NCBI GenBank assembly: GCA_035636595.1
Contig: DASPYU010000017.1
Coordinates: 64,040 to 128,039 of the forward strand
Source of the DNA: Thermoplasmata archaeon
Lineage (GTDB): Archaea; Thermoplasmatota; Thermoplasmata; RBG-16-68-12
DNA length: 64,000 nt
Direction: 5' to 3'
The position numbers and the translations under genes are program-made. Of the stretch, positions 5,893 to 31,954 are shown piece after piece; positions within the stretch are counted from its first letter, which is position 1; the number at the start of each line of letters is the position of its first letter. The notes beneath the pieces were generated by a model, which did no database searches, was not told the DNA's origin, and saw only the letters and a list, made by a program, of their open reading frames with translations.

Positions 5893-6105
5893 TCAGGCCG
5901 ACCCTCCCGATACGACCCCAATCACCCGGATGCGCTCGCCGTCCGCGAGGGGCTCGTCGATCGGGATCGGCGTACCGCCGCGGACGAGCAGGTGCGCGTT
6001 AGGTGGCAACCGTAGCGCACGAAGGAGGTCGAATCCTCTCGCACCCGGTTCGAGGGTCACGGTCTCCTCTCCCCGGCGCGGCACAAGCTCGGCGATGATT
6101 TGCAT
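5893..6105 (-). CDS. MoaD/ThiS/SAMP-like beta-grasp protein, ending ...VIGVVSGG-SA
   Basis: 70 aa. The pattern MQIIAEL...GETVTLEPGA..DLL..L......LLVRGGTPI..DEPLADGERIRVIGVVSGG fits MoaD/ThiS (a diglycine near the C-terminus, plus 2 extra residues). Confidence 0.45.
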   Translation of the reverse strand: MQIIAELVPRRGEETVTLEPGARGFDLLRALRLPPNAHLLVRGGTPIPIDEPLADGERIRVIGVVSGGSA

Positions 6106-27333: not shown

Positions 27334-27903
27334 TCAGCGGAGGAGTCCGGCGGATTTCAACTCGGCCGTGACCTTCTGGACCGCCTGCTCGACGTCCGAG
27401 GGCTTCCGGGCGCCCGTGCAGACGAGCTTCCCGCTGCCGAACAACAAGACGACCACCTTCGGCTCGTCGATGCGGTAGACGAGGCCGGGAAATTGCTCCG
27501 GTTCGTACTCCACCTTTCCGCCGCCGAGGGAGATCGCGACCGCATTCAGGTCGATCGGCGCCTCGAGGTCCGAGGTCGCGACGATGTTCTGGACCTCGAT
27601 CTGCAGGTTCTTCTTGACCGGTATGCCCGCGGCCTCAATCTGCTTCGCGACGAGGTCGATGGCGATCTTCACGTGCTCCGGGCTCTTTGCACCCGTGCAC
27701 ACGACCTTGCCGCTGCGGAACAGGAGGATCGCCGTCTTCGGTTCCTTCAGGCGGTAGATCAGTCCCGGGAATTGCTCCGGCTCATATTCCGCGCCGCCGA
27801 GGGCGAGGGCGATCGCCGGCAAGTCGAGCGCGTCCCCTAGGGAAGTCGAGGCGACCACGTTCTCGATCTGGATTTTCGCCGAAGAACCACCTCCGAGGGC
27901 CAA
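27334..27903 (-). CDS. tbp: TATA-box-binding protein (TBP)
   Basis: Two direct TBP repeats are present (IENVVASTSLG...EQFPGLIYRL / VQNIVATSDLE...EQFPGLVYRI). Confidence 0.9.
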   Translation of the reverse strand: MALGGGSSAKIQIENVVASTSLGDALDLPAIALALGGAEYEPEQFPGLIYRLKEPKTAILLFRSGKVVCTGAKSPEHVKIAIDLVAKQIEAAGIPVKKNLQIEVQNIVATSDLEAPIDLNAVAISLGGGKVEYEPEQFPGLVYRIDEPKVVVLLFGSGKLVCTGARKPSDVEQAVQKVTAELKSAGLLR

Positions 27904-28010: not shown

Positions 28011-28036
28011 GGTACGGGCCTCCCGGGATTCGAACC
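28011..28036 (-). repeat. tRNA-3'-end-like fragment (minus strand reads GGTTCGAATCCCGGGAGGCCCGTACC), direct-repeat copy A
   Basis: A T-loop-like GGTTCGAATCC is followed by a GC-rich acceptor-like strand. No complementary 5' half is present. It is similar to copy B (28881-28907). Confidence 0.45.
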
Positions 28037-28061
28037 ATTCCCTTGGAATGCCTGTCAATCA
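28035..28061 (+). repeat. left terminal inverted repeat (ccattcccttggaatgcctgtcaatca)
   Basis: 24 of 27 positions match the reverse complement of 28856-28882. Confidence 0.5.
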
Positions 28062-28521
28062 AGCGGGATTGAATTTCGGGACCCGTGGCATCTTTCCCTC
28101 ATGTCCGCCCTCAGGGGTGGGCGCCTTACCTTTTTGCGCTCCGGCGTCATGGCGGGCGCGCATGGCACCCGTGGACATGACCTATACGGCCCGATGCCCC
28201 AAATGCGGCTCGGGATACGAAGGCACGGACGCGCAGGCGTTCACGGCCTTCACGCAAGAGCACGACCGGCATGGTGTCGAGATGCGTAGCACGGCCCGAT
28301 GCTCTGGATGCGGGGCTAGTTACGAGGGAACGGACAAGAGCGCTTGGACGGATTTCATGACGGAGCACGCGGTGCACGGGGTTCGTTGTGCCAAATGTGG
28401 AGAGCAGCTCTCGTTCGTCGGTCAGGTAGGGACGTGTCCACGATGCGGTAAGAAAGAGACCGTCAGGGTCACCCTGCACGTCGAAAGGCGGAAACTCGGA
28501 CACACCTTCTTCGGACGATAG
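28048..28521 (+). CDS. zinc-ribbon protein with an internally duplicated ~40-aa CxxC module
   Basis: The motif ARC(P/S)xCG(S/A)xYEGTDxxA(F/W)T(A/D)F(T/M)xEH.(R/V)HGV occurs twice. A third CxxC...CPRCG ribbon follows. The start is probably an internal ATG (MAPVDMTY...). Confidence 0.4.
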   Translation: MPVNQAGLNFGTRGIFPSCPPSGVGALPFCAPASWRARMAPVDMTYTARCPKCGSGYEGTDAQAFTAFTQEHDRHGVEMRSTARCSGCGASYEGTDKSAWTDFMTEHAVHGVRCAKCGEQLSFVGQVGTCPRCGKKETVRVTLHVERRKLGHTFFGR

Positions 28522-28858
28522 CACCGTCGGCCGGATCTCGGCCTGGACCCGTCGAAGGTCGAAGCTCTCATTCCGAACGAGAGCGGCGCGTGCTTACTCG
28601 GAAGCGGGATGGAGACGGAGACGAGCAAAGACTTTCGCGGAAGCCGGAATCGAGCGCGCGAATTTCCGTTTCCTGAGGCCGAGCTTCGCGCAATGGCTCA
28701 AGGACCGCGGCGCGCCCATCGAGGCCGTGAGCAAGGCCCTCCGACATAGCTCAACGGCAACGACGGAGCGATTCTACGCAGGCATCCGCACGGAGCGCGC
28801 CTGGGACGATCTAGAGCGCGTTTGGGAGACTCCCATCGTGCGACTCAATTCCCCGTGA
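28430..28858 (+). pseudogene. tyrosine recombinase (integrase) C-terminal catalytic-domain fragment, degenerate
   Basis: In frame +2 (no start codon): ...FRFLRPSFAQWLKDRGAPIEAVSKALRHSSTATTERFYAGI aligns to the integrase box II consensus HDLRHTFAT-LL-G-I-V-LLGHSS-TTERYAH. Catalytic His/His are replaced, Tyr is retained, and the N-terminal domains are missing. Confidence 0.5.
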
Positions 28859-28882
28859 TTGACACGGATTCGAAGGGAATGG
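28856..28882 (-). repeat. right terminal inverted repeat (plus strand tgattgacacggattcgaagggaatgg)
   Basis: Its reverse complement matches 28035-28061 at 24 of 27 positions. It abuts the stop of the integrase fragment. Confidence 0.5.
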
Positions 28883-28907
28883 TACGGGCCTGCTGGGGTT
28901 CGAACCC
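28881..28907 (-). repeat. tRNA-3'-end-like fragment (minus strand reads GGGTTCGAACCCCAGCAGGCCCGTACC), direct-repeat copy B
   Basis: The T-arm folds perfectly (CTGGG-TTCGAAC-CCCAG) and is followed by an acceptor-like CAGGCCCG. No 5' acceptor partner is found upstream. Confidence 0.45.
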
Positions 28908-29030
28908 AGGTCAGAGGCTCCGGAGGCCTCCGTCCCACTCCCCGGAGCCATATGGATACTGCCGTTTTCGAGGCTGCGGAAGACGGTGTTGGGACCTTGG
29001 AATGCCCACGATCATGCCTGAGGGGAGGGA

Positions 29031-29777
29031 CTATTCAGTATCCCATCGATCTTTCGCAGCCCACCGAATCACGATGCCACCGTCTGGTAGCGCTTTGTTC
29101 CAGTGTCCAAACCGATTGAGGTCGCGGAGATCGGCCCGACCGATCAAGCCCTCCCCGATGAAAACGAACTCGTTCGCAAGCGGAAACTTTCCGTCGAGCA
29201 GGCGGTCGTATGACATGTCGGATGAATTCGTTTCATCGTCCATCCACCCGAAGTACGGCTTCACGTGGTTGTAGATGCTCTCCGCGAGCGCCAGGATTCG
29301 TTGCAAGTTCCGCTCGTGCGTTTCGTTCTTGCCGTACATAAGCACGAACTCTTGGAACATCGTGATGTTGATGCAGATGCGGCGACCTATCCTCGGATCT
29401 TCCACCGGGCCGAAGCGTAAGCAAATCTCGTTGGCCTCTTCCAGAAGGTCCCCTCCATGTTGAGATATCTTGTCGCGAACCTCCGGGTCGAACTCGAACG
29501 GGTAAGAGAAAATGAGTTGAACATCCGGCCATGCCACTTCCAGCCTAGCGGCGGCATTGGTTGCGAGTTCTTGCGCGCGCAGCAAGTCCAACACCCGGTC
29601 CTCTCTCGTCACGCGCTGGTGCATGTGGTCCTGCATTGTGTCCTGTGTCGTGAACAAGCGGACGCGCTTGTATCTGCAGCCTGAGTCCAACAGCGCGTGC
29701 ACTGATTCCGCGACTACGTTCGCCGATGACGCGAGCGCGGGGTCAACGTAGAATTCGATCCAGTAAAGCGCGGGCAT
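29031..29777 (-). CDS. hypothetical protein (within the lower-GC island adjacent to tRNA-Arg)
   Basis: 248-aa ORF with mixed composition in a segment of about 52% GC. No recognisable motifs. Confidence 0.4.
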   Translation of the reverse strand: MPALYWIEFYVDPALASSANVVAESVHALLDSGCRYKRVRLFTTQDTMQDHMHQRVTREDRVLDLLRAQELATNAAARLEVAWPDVQLIFSYPFEFDPEVRDKISQHGGDLLEEANEICLRFGPVEDPRIGRRICINITMFQEFVLMYGKNETHERNLQRILALAESIYNHVKPYFGWMDDETNSSDMSYDRLLDGKFPLANEFVFIGEGLIGRADLRDLNRFGHWNKALPDGGIVIRWAAKDRWDTE

Positions 29778-30077
29778 GACTCCATTCTAAATGTCCACGC
29801 GTCTCATAAAAGGAGGTATCTGTTCATCAAGCGGAGCCAAGTAGAGAGCACGGAGGTGATTTCGCCCTGCCCATCGTGTCCGGCAGCAAGCGGGTGGCAG
29901 TCTCCAGCTACCGCTCGGAGCAATGGCATGCAACCCGAGTCGGCGTGTATCGCCATCCAATCTACTGCCAGCTTCGTGGACTAATTATCACTCTGTTCGG
30001 AGCTTCGGCCCTTACCATTTTGAGGGCGGATTAATCGAGAGCGCCCTGACCAAGAGGTACCTGACGCCCCGAGGAAA

Positions 30078-30151
30078 CGCCCCCGTTGGGATTTGAACCC
30101 AAGTCCACAGGTCCGGAGCCTGTAAGTCTATCCAAACTAGCCTACGGGGGC
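30078..30151 (-). tRNA. tRNA-Arg (anticodon CCG)
   Basis: The acceptor GCCCCCG/CGGGGGC, anticodon stem ACAGG/CCTGT with loop CTCCGGA, and T-arm TTGGG-TTCAAAT-CCCAA fold perfectly. The D-arm has one mismatch. CCA is not encoded. Confidence 0.75.
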
Positions 30152-30341
30152 GCGAGCCTGAATTGGGAGGGGGATTAAAGACCCTCGGGGGACCGCGCCC
30201 GCGGCCTGACCGCCCGTAGATGAGGAGGTCTGGCTCATGATACTGTCCTATCCAAGCTAGACGACAGGCCCTGGCGCCGCCGAAAGATTGCCGCGGGTTA
30301 AGGCTTTCCCTCCAAGGCCCAGACTCGACACACGTTTAGGC

Positions 30342-31097
30342 TCACGGCTGCGGAGGCGGTACGGTTTTCTTTCGGCGGGCTACCAAGATGATTGCCGCAA
30401 CAATCGCGAGGACCACCGGGACAATCGCGAGCCAGATCCAGCTCGGAAGGACGCCGGGACTTGGAGTCGGAGTCGGAGACGATCCTGGATTTCCGGGCAC
30501 TTCCCAGCCGAAGTCCTCGTACGTGTACGTCGGCCCGCGCTGGGTCGCCGTCGCATCGATGTTCCATGCGCTGATCGTTCCGAGGAGGGACTTCGCGACA
30601 TTGATCTGCAAGCGGTTCTGCACGGTCGGGTTCGGACCCGCCGATGTGATTGCGCTGTTGCCGCTGATGTTGATCGGATTGAAGCCGGTCGCGTTCGATG
30701 TGAGGACTGTCGAACCATTCACATACGTCACGACAAAGTGGCTCGTGTTGTCGGCGCGGGTGAAGAGGCGCATCCGGTACGACGTGTTGTCGAGGTTCGA
30801 GATGCTCCCCTTGACCTCAAGCGTCAAGGTGACGTTCGCGGATGCGTTCGCGGAACGAACCCAGAGGAGGTTGACGGTGTCCGGGAACGGACTCATCGTC
30901 AGGTTTCCGGTGGGCGAGGGCACCGGAGTCATGTTCAGGGTCCACAGCTTCACGACGTCGCTCGCCGGATCGCTATAGTTCAGGTAGAACGAGATTCCCG
31001 AAGGCATCGGCGCCACGGGAGCGGCGGAGACCGAGATGGCGGCGGCCGCAAGCGATACCAATCCCAGCGCGAGGAGGAACGTAGCAACGGCCTTCAT
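30342..31097 (-). CDS. secreted sequon-rich surface (glyco)protein with C-terminal TM anchor, paralog 1
   Basis: Signal peptide MKAVATFLLALGLVSLAAAA, at least 12 N-x-S/T sequons, and a C-terminal GVLPSWIWLAIVPVVLAIV plus basic tail. About 60% identical to the next gene. Confidence 0.55.
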   Translation of the reverse strand: MKAVATFLLALGLVSLAAAAISVSAAPVAPMPSGISFYLNYSDPASDVVKLWTLNMTPVPSPTGNLTMSPFPDTVNLLWVRSANASANVTLTLEVKGSISNLDNTSYRMRLFTRADNTSHFVVTYVNGSTVLTSNATGFNPINISGNSAITSAGPNPTVQNRLQINVAKSLLGTISAWNIDATATQRGPTYTYEDFGWEVPGNPGSSPTPTPSPGVLPSWIWLAIVPVVLAIVAAIILVARRKKTVPPPQP

Positions 31098-31222: not shown

Positions 31223-31954
31223 CTATTTCGCGGGCGGCTCCCGCCCACTCCGCTGGTGACGGACCAGCACGAAGATGACCACCGCGATCGCGATGACGAC
31301 GGGCGCGACCGCCAGCCAGATCCAGTCCGGCAGAACGACTCCGAACTGGGATGCGGGCGGCCCAGATCCGGGACTCCCCGAGACGGCCCAGCCGTAGTCG
31401 CGATATGTGTACGTGAGGCCGCGCTGGGTCGCGGTCGCGTCGATGTCCCACGAGGTGATCGGCCCGAGCAGGGACTTCGCGACGGTGAGGACTAGGGTAT
31501 TCAGCAGCGCGGGGTTCGAGCCGGTCGACACGATCGCGCTGTTCCCGCTGATGTCCACCGGGTTGAACCCGGTCGCGTTCGACGTCAAGACCGTCGAGCC
31601 GTTGACGTAGGTGACAATGAAGTGACTCGTATTGTCCACCCGGGTGTAGAGCCGCATCTCGTACGTCGTGTTGTCGAGGTTTGCGATCGACCCCTTCACC
31701 TGGAAGGTCACGTTCACGCTCGCCGAAACGTTCGCGGATCGGATCCGGAGCAGGTTCACGCTGTCCGGGAACGGGGTCAGCGTCAGATTGCCATCCGGCT
31801 GCAGGACGGGCGTCATGTTACTCGTCCACAGTTGCACGACATCGCTCGCGGGGTCGCTGTAGTTCCGGTCGAACGACACGGTGGACGCGGCCCCCGGAAT
31901 CGCCGCGGAGGCGATTAGGGCGAGGAGGAGAAGACCTGCGGAAAAAGCCCTCAT
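31223..31954 (-). CDS. secreted sequon-rich surface (glyco)protein with C-terminal TM anchor, paralog 2
   Basis: Signal peptide MRAFSAGLLLLALIASAA, a GGGAGG Shine-Dalgarno upstream, many N-x-S/T sites, and the same C-terminal VLPDWIWLAVAPVVIAI anchor. Confidence 0.6.
   Translation of the reverse strand: MRAFSAGLLLLALIASAAIPGAASTVSFDRNYSDPASDVVQLWTSNMTPVLQPDGNLTLTPFPDSVNLLRIRSANVSASVNVTFQVKGSIANLDNTTYEMRLYTRVDNTSHFIVTYVNGSTVLTSNATGFNPVDISGNSAIVSTGSNPALLNTLVLTVAKSLLGPITSWDIDATATQRGLTYTYRDYGWAVSGSPGSGPPASQFGVVLPDWIWLAVAPVVIAIAVVIFVLVRHQRSGREPPAK

Follow-up and report, generated by a model that had tools for sequence, protein, structure and literature searches.

The segment at 28011-28906 of the 64-kb window (the whole stretch of Thermoplasmata DNA analyzed here, to whose positions all coordinates refer) is very probably a decayed, non-autonomous copy of a family of small integrative elements found in uncultured Thermoplasmata. 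A first, sequence-only reading had taken it for a decayed integrative element with direct repeats (DRs) derived from a tRNA gene, and this was corroborated by intact relatives at three loci (L015, L069 and L147) with the same anatomy. From that anatomy we concluded that the family consists of site-specific integrative elements, in which the direct repeats are the att core and the terminal inverted repeats (TIRs) are the element's own arms. The alternative of a transposable element, offered in the same reading, was dropped, as the direct repeats are att core rather than a target-site duplication. Marks of tRNA-targeting integrative elements were found, namely direct repeats of tRNA sequence, one copy of which completes the tRNA, and different insertion sites among genomes. 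Features of the window element and of the neighboring tRNA-Arg(CCG) genes are listed in Table 1.

Table 1. Features of the element remnant and of the adjoining tRNA-Arg(CCG) genes, in window coordinates.
Feature	Position	Strand	Remarks
DR1, distal att core copy (attR-like)	28011..28036	-	Aligns to the L015 and L069 left ends
TIR-L, 42-nt left terminal inverted repeat	28031..28072	+	Kept in L015, L069, L147
Conserved left-end region	28073..28135	+	Homologous to L015 5951-6067, L069 105-228, L147 4653-4756
Zn-ribbon gene, 119 aa	28162..28521	+	Four CxxC pairs, internal duplication
Integrase remnant	28534..28858	+	Residues ~210-317 of a 317-aa tyrosine integrase
TIR-R, 42-nt right terminal inverted repeat	28845..28886	-	Kept in L004, L007, L010, L015, L069, L084, L107
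DR2, tRNA-side att core copy (attL-like)	28881..28906	-	T-loop-to-3'-end of damaged tRNA-Arg(CCG), plus TACC
Pseudo-tRNA-Arg(CCG) #1	28885..28949	-	Rfam tRNA model, 26.9 bits
Complete tRNA-Arg(CCG) #2	30078..30151	-	Rfam tRNA model, 51.4 bits; 100% identical in L133
Orphan 5' piece of tRNA-Arg(CCG) #1	30243..30271	-	Acceptor 5' strand, D arm, positions 1-27

The two direct repeats were identical at 23 of 26 positions, and a degenerate pattern fitting both occurred at these two sites only in the 64 kb, with none expected from 100 dinucleotide-preserving shuffles. On the minus strand DR1 read GGTTCGAATCCCGGGAGGCCCGTACC, corresponding to the T-loop, 3' T-stem, 3' acceptor strand and discriminator of a tRNA, followed by TACC. 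Inside the direct repeats, the 27-mer at 28035-28061 matched the opposite strand of 28856-28882 with three mismatches, for which 100 dinucleotide-preserving shuffles gave no match. Scored against shuffled sequence, the similarity of each repeat pair was thus above chance (0 in 100), and the imperfect direct repeats stood outside the inverted repeats as originally described. The inverted repeats, first reported as 27 bp alike at 24 positions, were likewise real, but their true length was 42 nt, over which the two were 83% complementary. TIR-L overlapped DR1 by 6 nt and contained the sub-palindromes CCATTCC-CTT-GGAATGC and TCAAT-N8-ATTGA, and TIR-R took in the final codons of the integrase gene together with its stop; no further copies of the inverted repeat were found in the 64-kb window. 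The conserved region next to TIR-L, a G+C-rich hairpin followed by a T-run, occurred at one end only of the family's elements, the integrase-distal one. A derivation of the element's ends from a tRNA gene applies to the direct repeats but not to the inverted repeats, which are the element's own arms. The left junction of the window element may have had a more complex history, since the direct repeats differed at 3 of 26 positions and DR1 carried an extra TACC that was absent from the distal repeats of L069, L015 and L147. Two descriptions of the setting needed correction: G+C content within the element was only marginally below its surroundings (0.60-0.63 versus 0.63-0.66), the real dip (0.54-0.59) lying at 28800-30150, and the element was not immediately upstream of tbp, as 107 bp separated DR1 from the start codon of tbp (27903). 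A third 12-mer, CCTTGGAATGCC at 28995-29006, was considered and rejected, as chance can account for it (2 of 100 shuffles) and it was not kept in L133.

The tyrosine-recombinase sequence noticed in a second reading frame of the element was upheld by an HMM search, in which the frame-2 peptide matched PF00589 with a score of 31.6 bits (E=1.7e-7), above the cut-off of 27.1, the alignment being confined to model positions 81-166 of 172. About 108 C-terminal codons were left, with no start codon and with a +1 frameshift through an extra T at 28594/28595. The remnant retained Arg-II (RFLR), His (LRHSS) and Tyr (RFYA), but Arg-I and Lys both belonged to the deleted part, leaving the catalytic set incomplete, and a near-invariant position was altered (R293G). 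Over residues 230-315 the remnant protein shared 91% identity with an integrase reconstructed from L004, and by eye it was almost the same as the C-terminal part of the intact L069 enzyme. Homology of the window to the intact elements was limited to 28015-28135 and 28534-28907. Having lost the N-terminal two thirds of its integrase, including Arg-I and Lys, and having acquired a frameshift, the window copy is a non-autonomous remnant that cannot move by itself; at most, it would be movable in trans. No second integrase copy was found in the 64-kb window.

The integrase belonged to a family of at least 114 protein clusters at E<1e-10, in which the only name given to named clusters was 'site-specific integrase [Thermoplasmata/Thermoplasmatota archaeon]'; a search with the C-terminal integrase peptide matched only short proteins. 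Alignment of 105 full-length members gave the conserved set R151, K176, K/R/Q255-x-x-R258, H281 and Y291, with K (49 members), R (30) or Q (19) at the His position of the HxxR box. As these residues recur across the family, the substituted His is a family trait. The catalytic His residues of the window copy had been described as substituted, which does not hold in that form: the HxxR position is K/R/Q throughout the family and the second His (LRHSS) is present. A basic residue at this position is also part of the consensus of SSV-type integrases, R..KxxR..Y (PMC8371274). The intact L069 integrase matched PF00589 at E=8.8e-14. Escherichia coli XerD aligned over the whole length of the integrase, R255 falling at the HxxR histidine, and XerC/XerD/XerA recombinases provided the best matches among solved structures (XerD, 1a0p, E=1.6e-7) and in NCBIfam, all scores being far below the equivalog cut-offs (37 bits versus 279). 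No relatives of the integrase were found in IMG/VR, and GenBank phages and PLSDB plasmids yielded nothing that exceeded 29% identity across most of the protein.

Metagenomes scanned with a DNA pattern gave 119 loci, of which only L010, L015, L069, L084, L107 and L113 were relatives, the remaining loci being chance matches. At L004, a 315-codon integrase pseudogene with one frameshift and one stop ended 25 nt short of a tRNA-Arg(CCG) gene that was itself intact. Uninterrupted integrases of 317-318 aa were encoded at L010, L015, L069, L084, L107 and L147; the first five were 82-84% identical to the L004 reconstruction, and each ended beside an intron-containing tRNA-Lys(CUU) gene. Targets of the family thus comprised tRNA-Lys(CUU) (five loci), tRNA-Arg(CCG) (L004, L147 and the window) and, at L113, a third tRNA distinct from both. 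In all integrated copies the att core lay 20-25 nt past the integrase stop codon, and in the six with uninterrupted integrases the gene was whole after integration and beside the att site, whereas the window copy was truncated. Both ends were available for L015 and L069, whose left ends aligned with window positions 28015-28135, and the same 42-nt inverted repeats were present at both ends of L015, L069 and L147. The direct repeats outside them matched the 3' end of the adjoining tRNA gene at all three loci and were perfect in L069 (23/23) and L147 (22/22); the L069 23-mer was its T-loop-to-discriminator part. Element size ranged from 1.5 kb (L015) through 5.5 kb (L069) to 6.3 kb (L147). L015 contained the integrase and a possible small membrane-like ORF (by eye, in six-frame translation), and the cargo of the larger elements included HTH, MazE-like and serine-recombinase genes and others without an assigned role, the small serine recombinase of L069 and L147 being of the resolvase/invertase type. 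For an integrase of 32% identity beside tRNA-Asn, at L006, a search within 6 kb revealed no further att copy.

Across the family, the element body was found facing either way with respect to the core. At L147/L148, the intact tRNA-Arg(CCG) was followed by the integrase-distal end (the arm and the end-specific hairpin region) and the integrase-proximal arm abutted the distal 22/22 direct repeat, an orientation opposite to that in the window, in L004 and in all tRNA-Lys copies. It could have arisen through inversion between the arms or through a flipped core in attP. The outer half of each arm might go with the core and the inner half with the body, but the arms showed few differences by which to tell. 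Thermoplasmata MAGs of several samples included contigs (L001, L002, L127 and L128) that were 99.6-100% identical to the window and collinear with it, with the same arrangement and orientation, and L130-L131 had the same gene order. Neither a circular form nor an excision junction was observed, no empty site was found among the same-species assemblies, all of which carried the window arrangement, and the aligned assemblies (L001, L002, L127 and L128) gave no sign of inversion at this locus. The suggestion of a formerly invertible segment therefore finds no support in these four, but gains limited support, at the level of the family, from the opposite body orientation in L147/L148.

The Zn-ribbon protein with a duplicated CxxC module was present as described, the longest version of its ORF beginning at 28048, with profile matches to Zn-ribbons that were all sub-threshold. 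The segment carrying it (28136-28533) had no counterpart in the intact elements and stood in place of about 1 kb, made up of the region upstream of the integrase gene and ~210 of its codons, those of Arg-I and Lys among them. Its protein family was very small, with 7 matches in 1.8 billion representatives. Two homologues, P0019 (55% identity) and P0020 (68%), were both outside any element; the former adjoined L7Ae/S28e, and homology with the latter ended at 28535, exactly at the junction with the integrase remnant. Every other element copy examined was without the gene. With homologues in non-element contexts, the Zn-ribbon gene is not ancestral to the element and represents an unrelated replacement of about 1 kb, which may have come about by capture or by illegitimate recombination. 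The L7Ae/S28e neighbors of the homologue were absent from the window, where hints from tblastx were not upheld by tblastn.

On the other side of the element, DR2 continued into a damaged tRNA gene. Alignment to the Rfam tRNA model at 28885-28949, just below the gathering score of 29, identified DR2 as the 3' end of this gene and not an isolated fragment, so that the likeness of the direct repeats to a tRNA 3' end, seen at the outset, was correct, but DR2 was continuous with the anticodon and T arms. The anticodon loop, CUCCGGA, is that of Arg(CCG); the anticodon arm, variable loop, T arm and 3' acceptor strand were intact, and the 5' acceptor strand and D arm were degenerate. This tRNA-Arg(CCG) #1 is the integration target of the window element, and intact orthologues of it were found in L004 (3459-3534) and L147 (4581-4654). 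Neither direct repeat had been credited with a 5' partner; in fact, DR2 has the upstream part of the tRNA beside it and the missing 5' third 1.3 kb away, preceded by a conserved promoter-like box, AAAGCCTTAA. When joined in silico, the two pieces formed a perfect cloverleaf. Between them lay tRNA-Arg(CCG) #2 and a conserved ORF, ORF248 (29031-29777).

The same broken arrangement was found in a sister species (L133/L135, ~79% nucleotide identity), in which the 1.3 kb was bordered by a 9-nt duplication of tRNA positions 22-30. There, the pseudo-tRNA was followed only by a degenerate arm and then by different genes, the element at the orthologous site of L133 being reduced to a degenerate solo arm. 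As L133/L135 share the arrangement and the tRNA is uninterrupted in L004 and L147, the disruption of tRNA-Arg(CCG) #1 is old. Its pieces were 90-95% conserved between the window species and L133, compared to flanking non-coding DNA that was 45-55% alike. Selection might maintain them, perhaps in the role of a split tRNA or of signals for RNA processing, instead of their being debris. When the pieces were co-folded with their flanks, neither the window nor L133 showed a bulge-helix-bulge motif, the only complementarities being of 6-7 bp and within chance, and folding z-scores near 0 gave no structure signal in 30150-30280 or 28880-28960. With introns allowed, ARAGORN called a 'tRNA-Pro(GGG)' at 28885-29151, which we rejected as spurious, as its 178-nt intron fell inside the anticodon stem and its 5' half in ORF248.

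Intact members of the family carry a gene for a 317-aa tyrosine integrase with its 3' end against the attachment site. In the circular form, to judge from the anatomy of integrated copies, attP would consist of arm(42) - core(~22) - arm'(42), the core being the T-loop-to-discriminator part of the tRNA gene and the arms being mutually inverted, so as to make a near-palindrome around an asymmetric core. Recombination of attP with the tRNA gene would insert the element just after the tRNA, rebuilding the tRNA 3' end at one junction and leaving a direct repeat of 22-26 nt at the other, and the arms would become terminal inverted repeats just inside the direct repeats. The 42-nt arms, far longer than usual core-type sites, would be integrase-binding sites. 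A crossover within the 7-nt T-loop, flanked by the T-stem, would fit the start of the direct repeats at the T-loop, which is the classical tRNA sublocation for crossover (Williams 2002 and Campbell 2003, as cited in PMC8371274); the center of symmetry of the arms was in the T-stem/acceptor part and not in the T-loop. The window element sits at a tRNA-Arg(CCG) gene, and the N-terminal two thirds of its integrase have been replaced by the Zn-ribbon gene.

A more far-reaching version of this account is that the near-palindromic attP lets the body lie either way around, flipped between the arms by the integrase or by the serine recombinase of larger members; we consider it rather unlikely, as we do the separate idea that the tRNA #1 pieces are under selection. 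The former, if true, would set these tyrosine-recombinase elements, with their TIRs and tRNA targets, apart as a new class specific to Thermoplasmatota and able to shrink to an IS-like 1.5 kb. It is unlikely that the window copy is instead a living mini-element with intact ends and a Zn-ribbon cargo, excised, integrated or inverted in trans by a full-length integrase elsewhere in the genome. Both inverted and both direct repeats were preserved as well as in intact elements, the Zn-ribbon ORF was intact with the left-end hairpin and T-run stopping 26 nt before its ATG, and a minimal relative of 1.5 kb does exist (L015). Against this, no second integrase was found in the 64-kb window, arrangement and orientation were unchanged in the aligned independent assemblies, the Zn-ribbon gene was private to this copy, and the direct repeats were imperfect (23/26).

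It seems very unlikely that the 772-bp segment enclosed by the inverted repeats serves, or once served, as an invertible switch altering the expression of tbp or the Zn-ribbon gene. Long inverted repeats do bound it, the body in L147/L148 faces the opposite way to that in the window, L004 and L069, and a resolvase/invertase-type recombinase is part of the L069 and L147 cargo; however, no active recombinase is encoded in the window, a single orientation was seen in all same-species contigs, orientation differed between lineages and not within a population, and the TATA-like box and start of tbp (by eye) were outside the element. The layout of inverted repeats just inside direct repeats also resembles an IS- or MITE-like transposon with a target-site duplication, yet the 22-26-nt direct repeats were the 3' end of a tRNA in every copy, the sole recombinase was a tyrosine integrase, and the window had no further copies, making a transposon extremely unlikely. 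We attach next to no probability to the idea that integration split an SSV-type 'suicidal' integrase and left the window fragment as its Int(C) half, marking one border of a much larger provirus. The basic residue in place of the HxxR His agrees with the SSV-type consensus (PMC8371274), but the integrase of integrated relatives was uninterrupted and ended 20-25 nt before the att core, the window fragment reads toward the att site and not away from it, and its breakpoint at 28534 adjoins the Zn-ribbon segment and not the att site. The preferred reading remains that of a degraded integrative element.

As a remnant, the window copy is ordinary genome debris of a commonplace kind. It nevertheless marks the tRNA-Arg locus beside tbp as a recombination hot spot and provides an entry point to an uncharacterized integrase clade of soil and sediment Thermoplasmata. 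This clade is distinguished by the combination of an SSV-like K/R/Q-x-x-R box with a non-suicidal gene arrangement, by unusually long inverted-repeat arms around the att core, by a minimal size comprising only the integrase, and by a body found in both orientations. Should the arms prove to be a recombination substrate, the family would offer a compact archaeal integration module, possibly usable either way round.

Among known systems, the type II (pNOB8-like) archaeal elements (She et al.; PMC8371274) are similar in having a tyrosine integrase with attP outside the gene, which stays whole after integration, and in integrating into tRNA genes with tRNA-sequence direct repeats at both borders. 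However, the pNOB8-type consensus R...Y-x-x-R...Y (PMC8371274) does not describe the Thermoplasmata family, in which the position of its first Y is K/R/Q; the Thermoplasmata integrase is convergent with the tRNA and not on the same strand, and its elements have 42-nt inverted arms around the core and sizes down to 1.5 kb. With the type I, SSV1-type 'suicidal' elements the family shares the basic residue for the HxxR His and the targeting of the downstream half of the tRNA gene, but its attP is outside the integrase gene, which is not split on integration; the window copy was truncated by a secondary deletion or replacement and not by an SSV1-type split. SNJ2-type haloarchaeal modules (PMC5861418) likewise have a short att core at a tRNA 3' end near the integrase 3' end, and P and P' arms conserved among related elements. 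The Thermoplasmata family differs from them in integrase clade, in arms that are long mutual inverted repeats, and in that no Orf2/Orf3 accessory genes were seen. Recombination sites made of inverted repeats around a central region also recall XerC/XerD/XerA and dif; unlike that system, the Thermoplasmata element is mobile, has tRNA targets and variable cargo, and does not resolve chromosome dimers. The broken tRNA gene has a parallel in tRNA-Thr(GGU) of Caldiarchaeum subterraneum (Sugahara et al. 2012, PMC3293823), where an orphan 5' tRNA fragment upstream of inserted DNA accompanies a second tRNA of the same specificity and the disruption was ascribed to mobile-element integration at the 5' part of the tRNA (PMC3293823). 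In contrast to that case, the 1.3-kb insert in the window, which two species have in common, brings a complete replacement tRNA along with a conserved ORF but no recombinase gene; the broken tRNA with its replacement copy represents a second natural example for the disruption of tRNA genes by mobile elements.

The first of the tRNA-Arg(CCG) genes in the window (tRNA-Arg(CCG) #1) was broken into two pieces, its 5' third lying ~1.3 kb away from its 3' two-thirds, with a second, complete tRNA-Arg(CCG) gene and the conserved ORF248 situated between them (see table). The same split arrangement was found in the sister species of the window (L133/L135), in which tRNA positions 22-30 were duplicated (9 nt) at the borders of the 1.3-kb insert. 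The gene was uninterrupted in the related loci L004 and L147. Both pieces were far more conserved than the flanking DNA, and if joined, those of the window would still form a perfect cloverleaf. ORF248 belonged to a small conserved family of Thermoplasmata proteins (7 clusters, 37-100% identity) that had no match in Pfam, NCBIfam or PHROG, and its more distant relatives (L137, L139) were found in differing gene neighbourhoods.

Of the decayed integrative element at this tRNA (element A), sister species L133 kept a solitary degenerate arm (5899-5945), positioned after the pseudo-tRNA, and nothing else. Next to this arm came SnoaL, thiolase, Band_7 and DUF1801 genes, where the window carried element A and the tbp, L35Ae, MsrB and glyoxalase genes. 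The two arrangements meet again at a RibD_C gene, which makes the att site a breakpoint of rearrangement. At the left end of element A (28011-28040), the distal copy of the att core (DR1) was followed by the motif TACC. All copies showed this motif at their tRNA-side junction, and it was missing after the distal repeats of L069, L015 and L147. A tRNA-side junction may have given rise to the left junction of the window copy, for example via tandem elements or recombination between copies.

Other repeats were also present in the window. The 12-mer CCTTGGAATGCC of the left terminal inverted repeat had a third exact copy at 28995-29006, which was within chance expectation (two matches in 2 of 100 shuffles) and was not conserved in L133. 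A 128-nt direct repeat (73% identity; 27410-27537 and 27689-27816) was most likely the two-domain repeat of TBP, with no relation to the element, since it is located inside tbp, whose protein has two stretches that matched the TBP domain of Pfam. A further direct repeat, with 884-nt spacing, corresponded to two tandem paralogues encoding secreted or membrane-anchored proteins that were 61% identical; L133 had a single copy, and the homologue in L004 was a 325-aa protein with CarboxypepD_reg domains.

Coordinates of tRNA genes and neighbouring ORFs in the window and in related loci
Feature	Location	Position	Strand	Remark
tRNA-Arg(CCG) #1, 3' piece	Window	28885-28949	-	Separated piece
ORF248	Window	29031-29777	-	Between the pieces
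tRNA-Arg(CCG), second	Window	30078-30151	-	Complete; between the pieces
tRNA-Arg(CCG) #1, 5' piece	Window	30243-30271	-	Separated piece
Tandem paralogue	Window	30342-31097	-	251 aa
Tandem paralogue	Window	31223-31954	-	243 aa
tRNA-Lys(CUU)	L007	501-608		Intron-containing
tRNA-Lys(CUU)	L015	7460-7568		Intron-containing
tRNA-Lys(CUU)	L069	5581-5697		Intron-containing
tRNA-Lys(CUU)	L084	6837-6942		Intron-containing
tRNA-Lys(CUU)	L107	3444-3560		Intron-containing

Every tRNA-Lys(CUU) gene targeted by intact elements of this family contained an anticodon-loop intron of 30-41 nt, differing in length and sequence by locus, and the exons were identical. A related 6.3-kb element was found at an intact tRNA-Arg(CCG) in L147 (4581-10998), and likewise in L148, its orientation relative to the tRNA being the reverse of that in the window: the acceptor side of the tRNA was joined to the integrase-distal end, and the distal direct repeat to the integrase-proximal arm. 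The cargo of the L147 element included a full 208-aa serine recombinase of the resolvase/invertase type.
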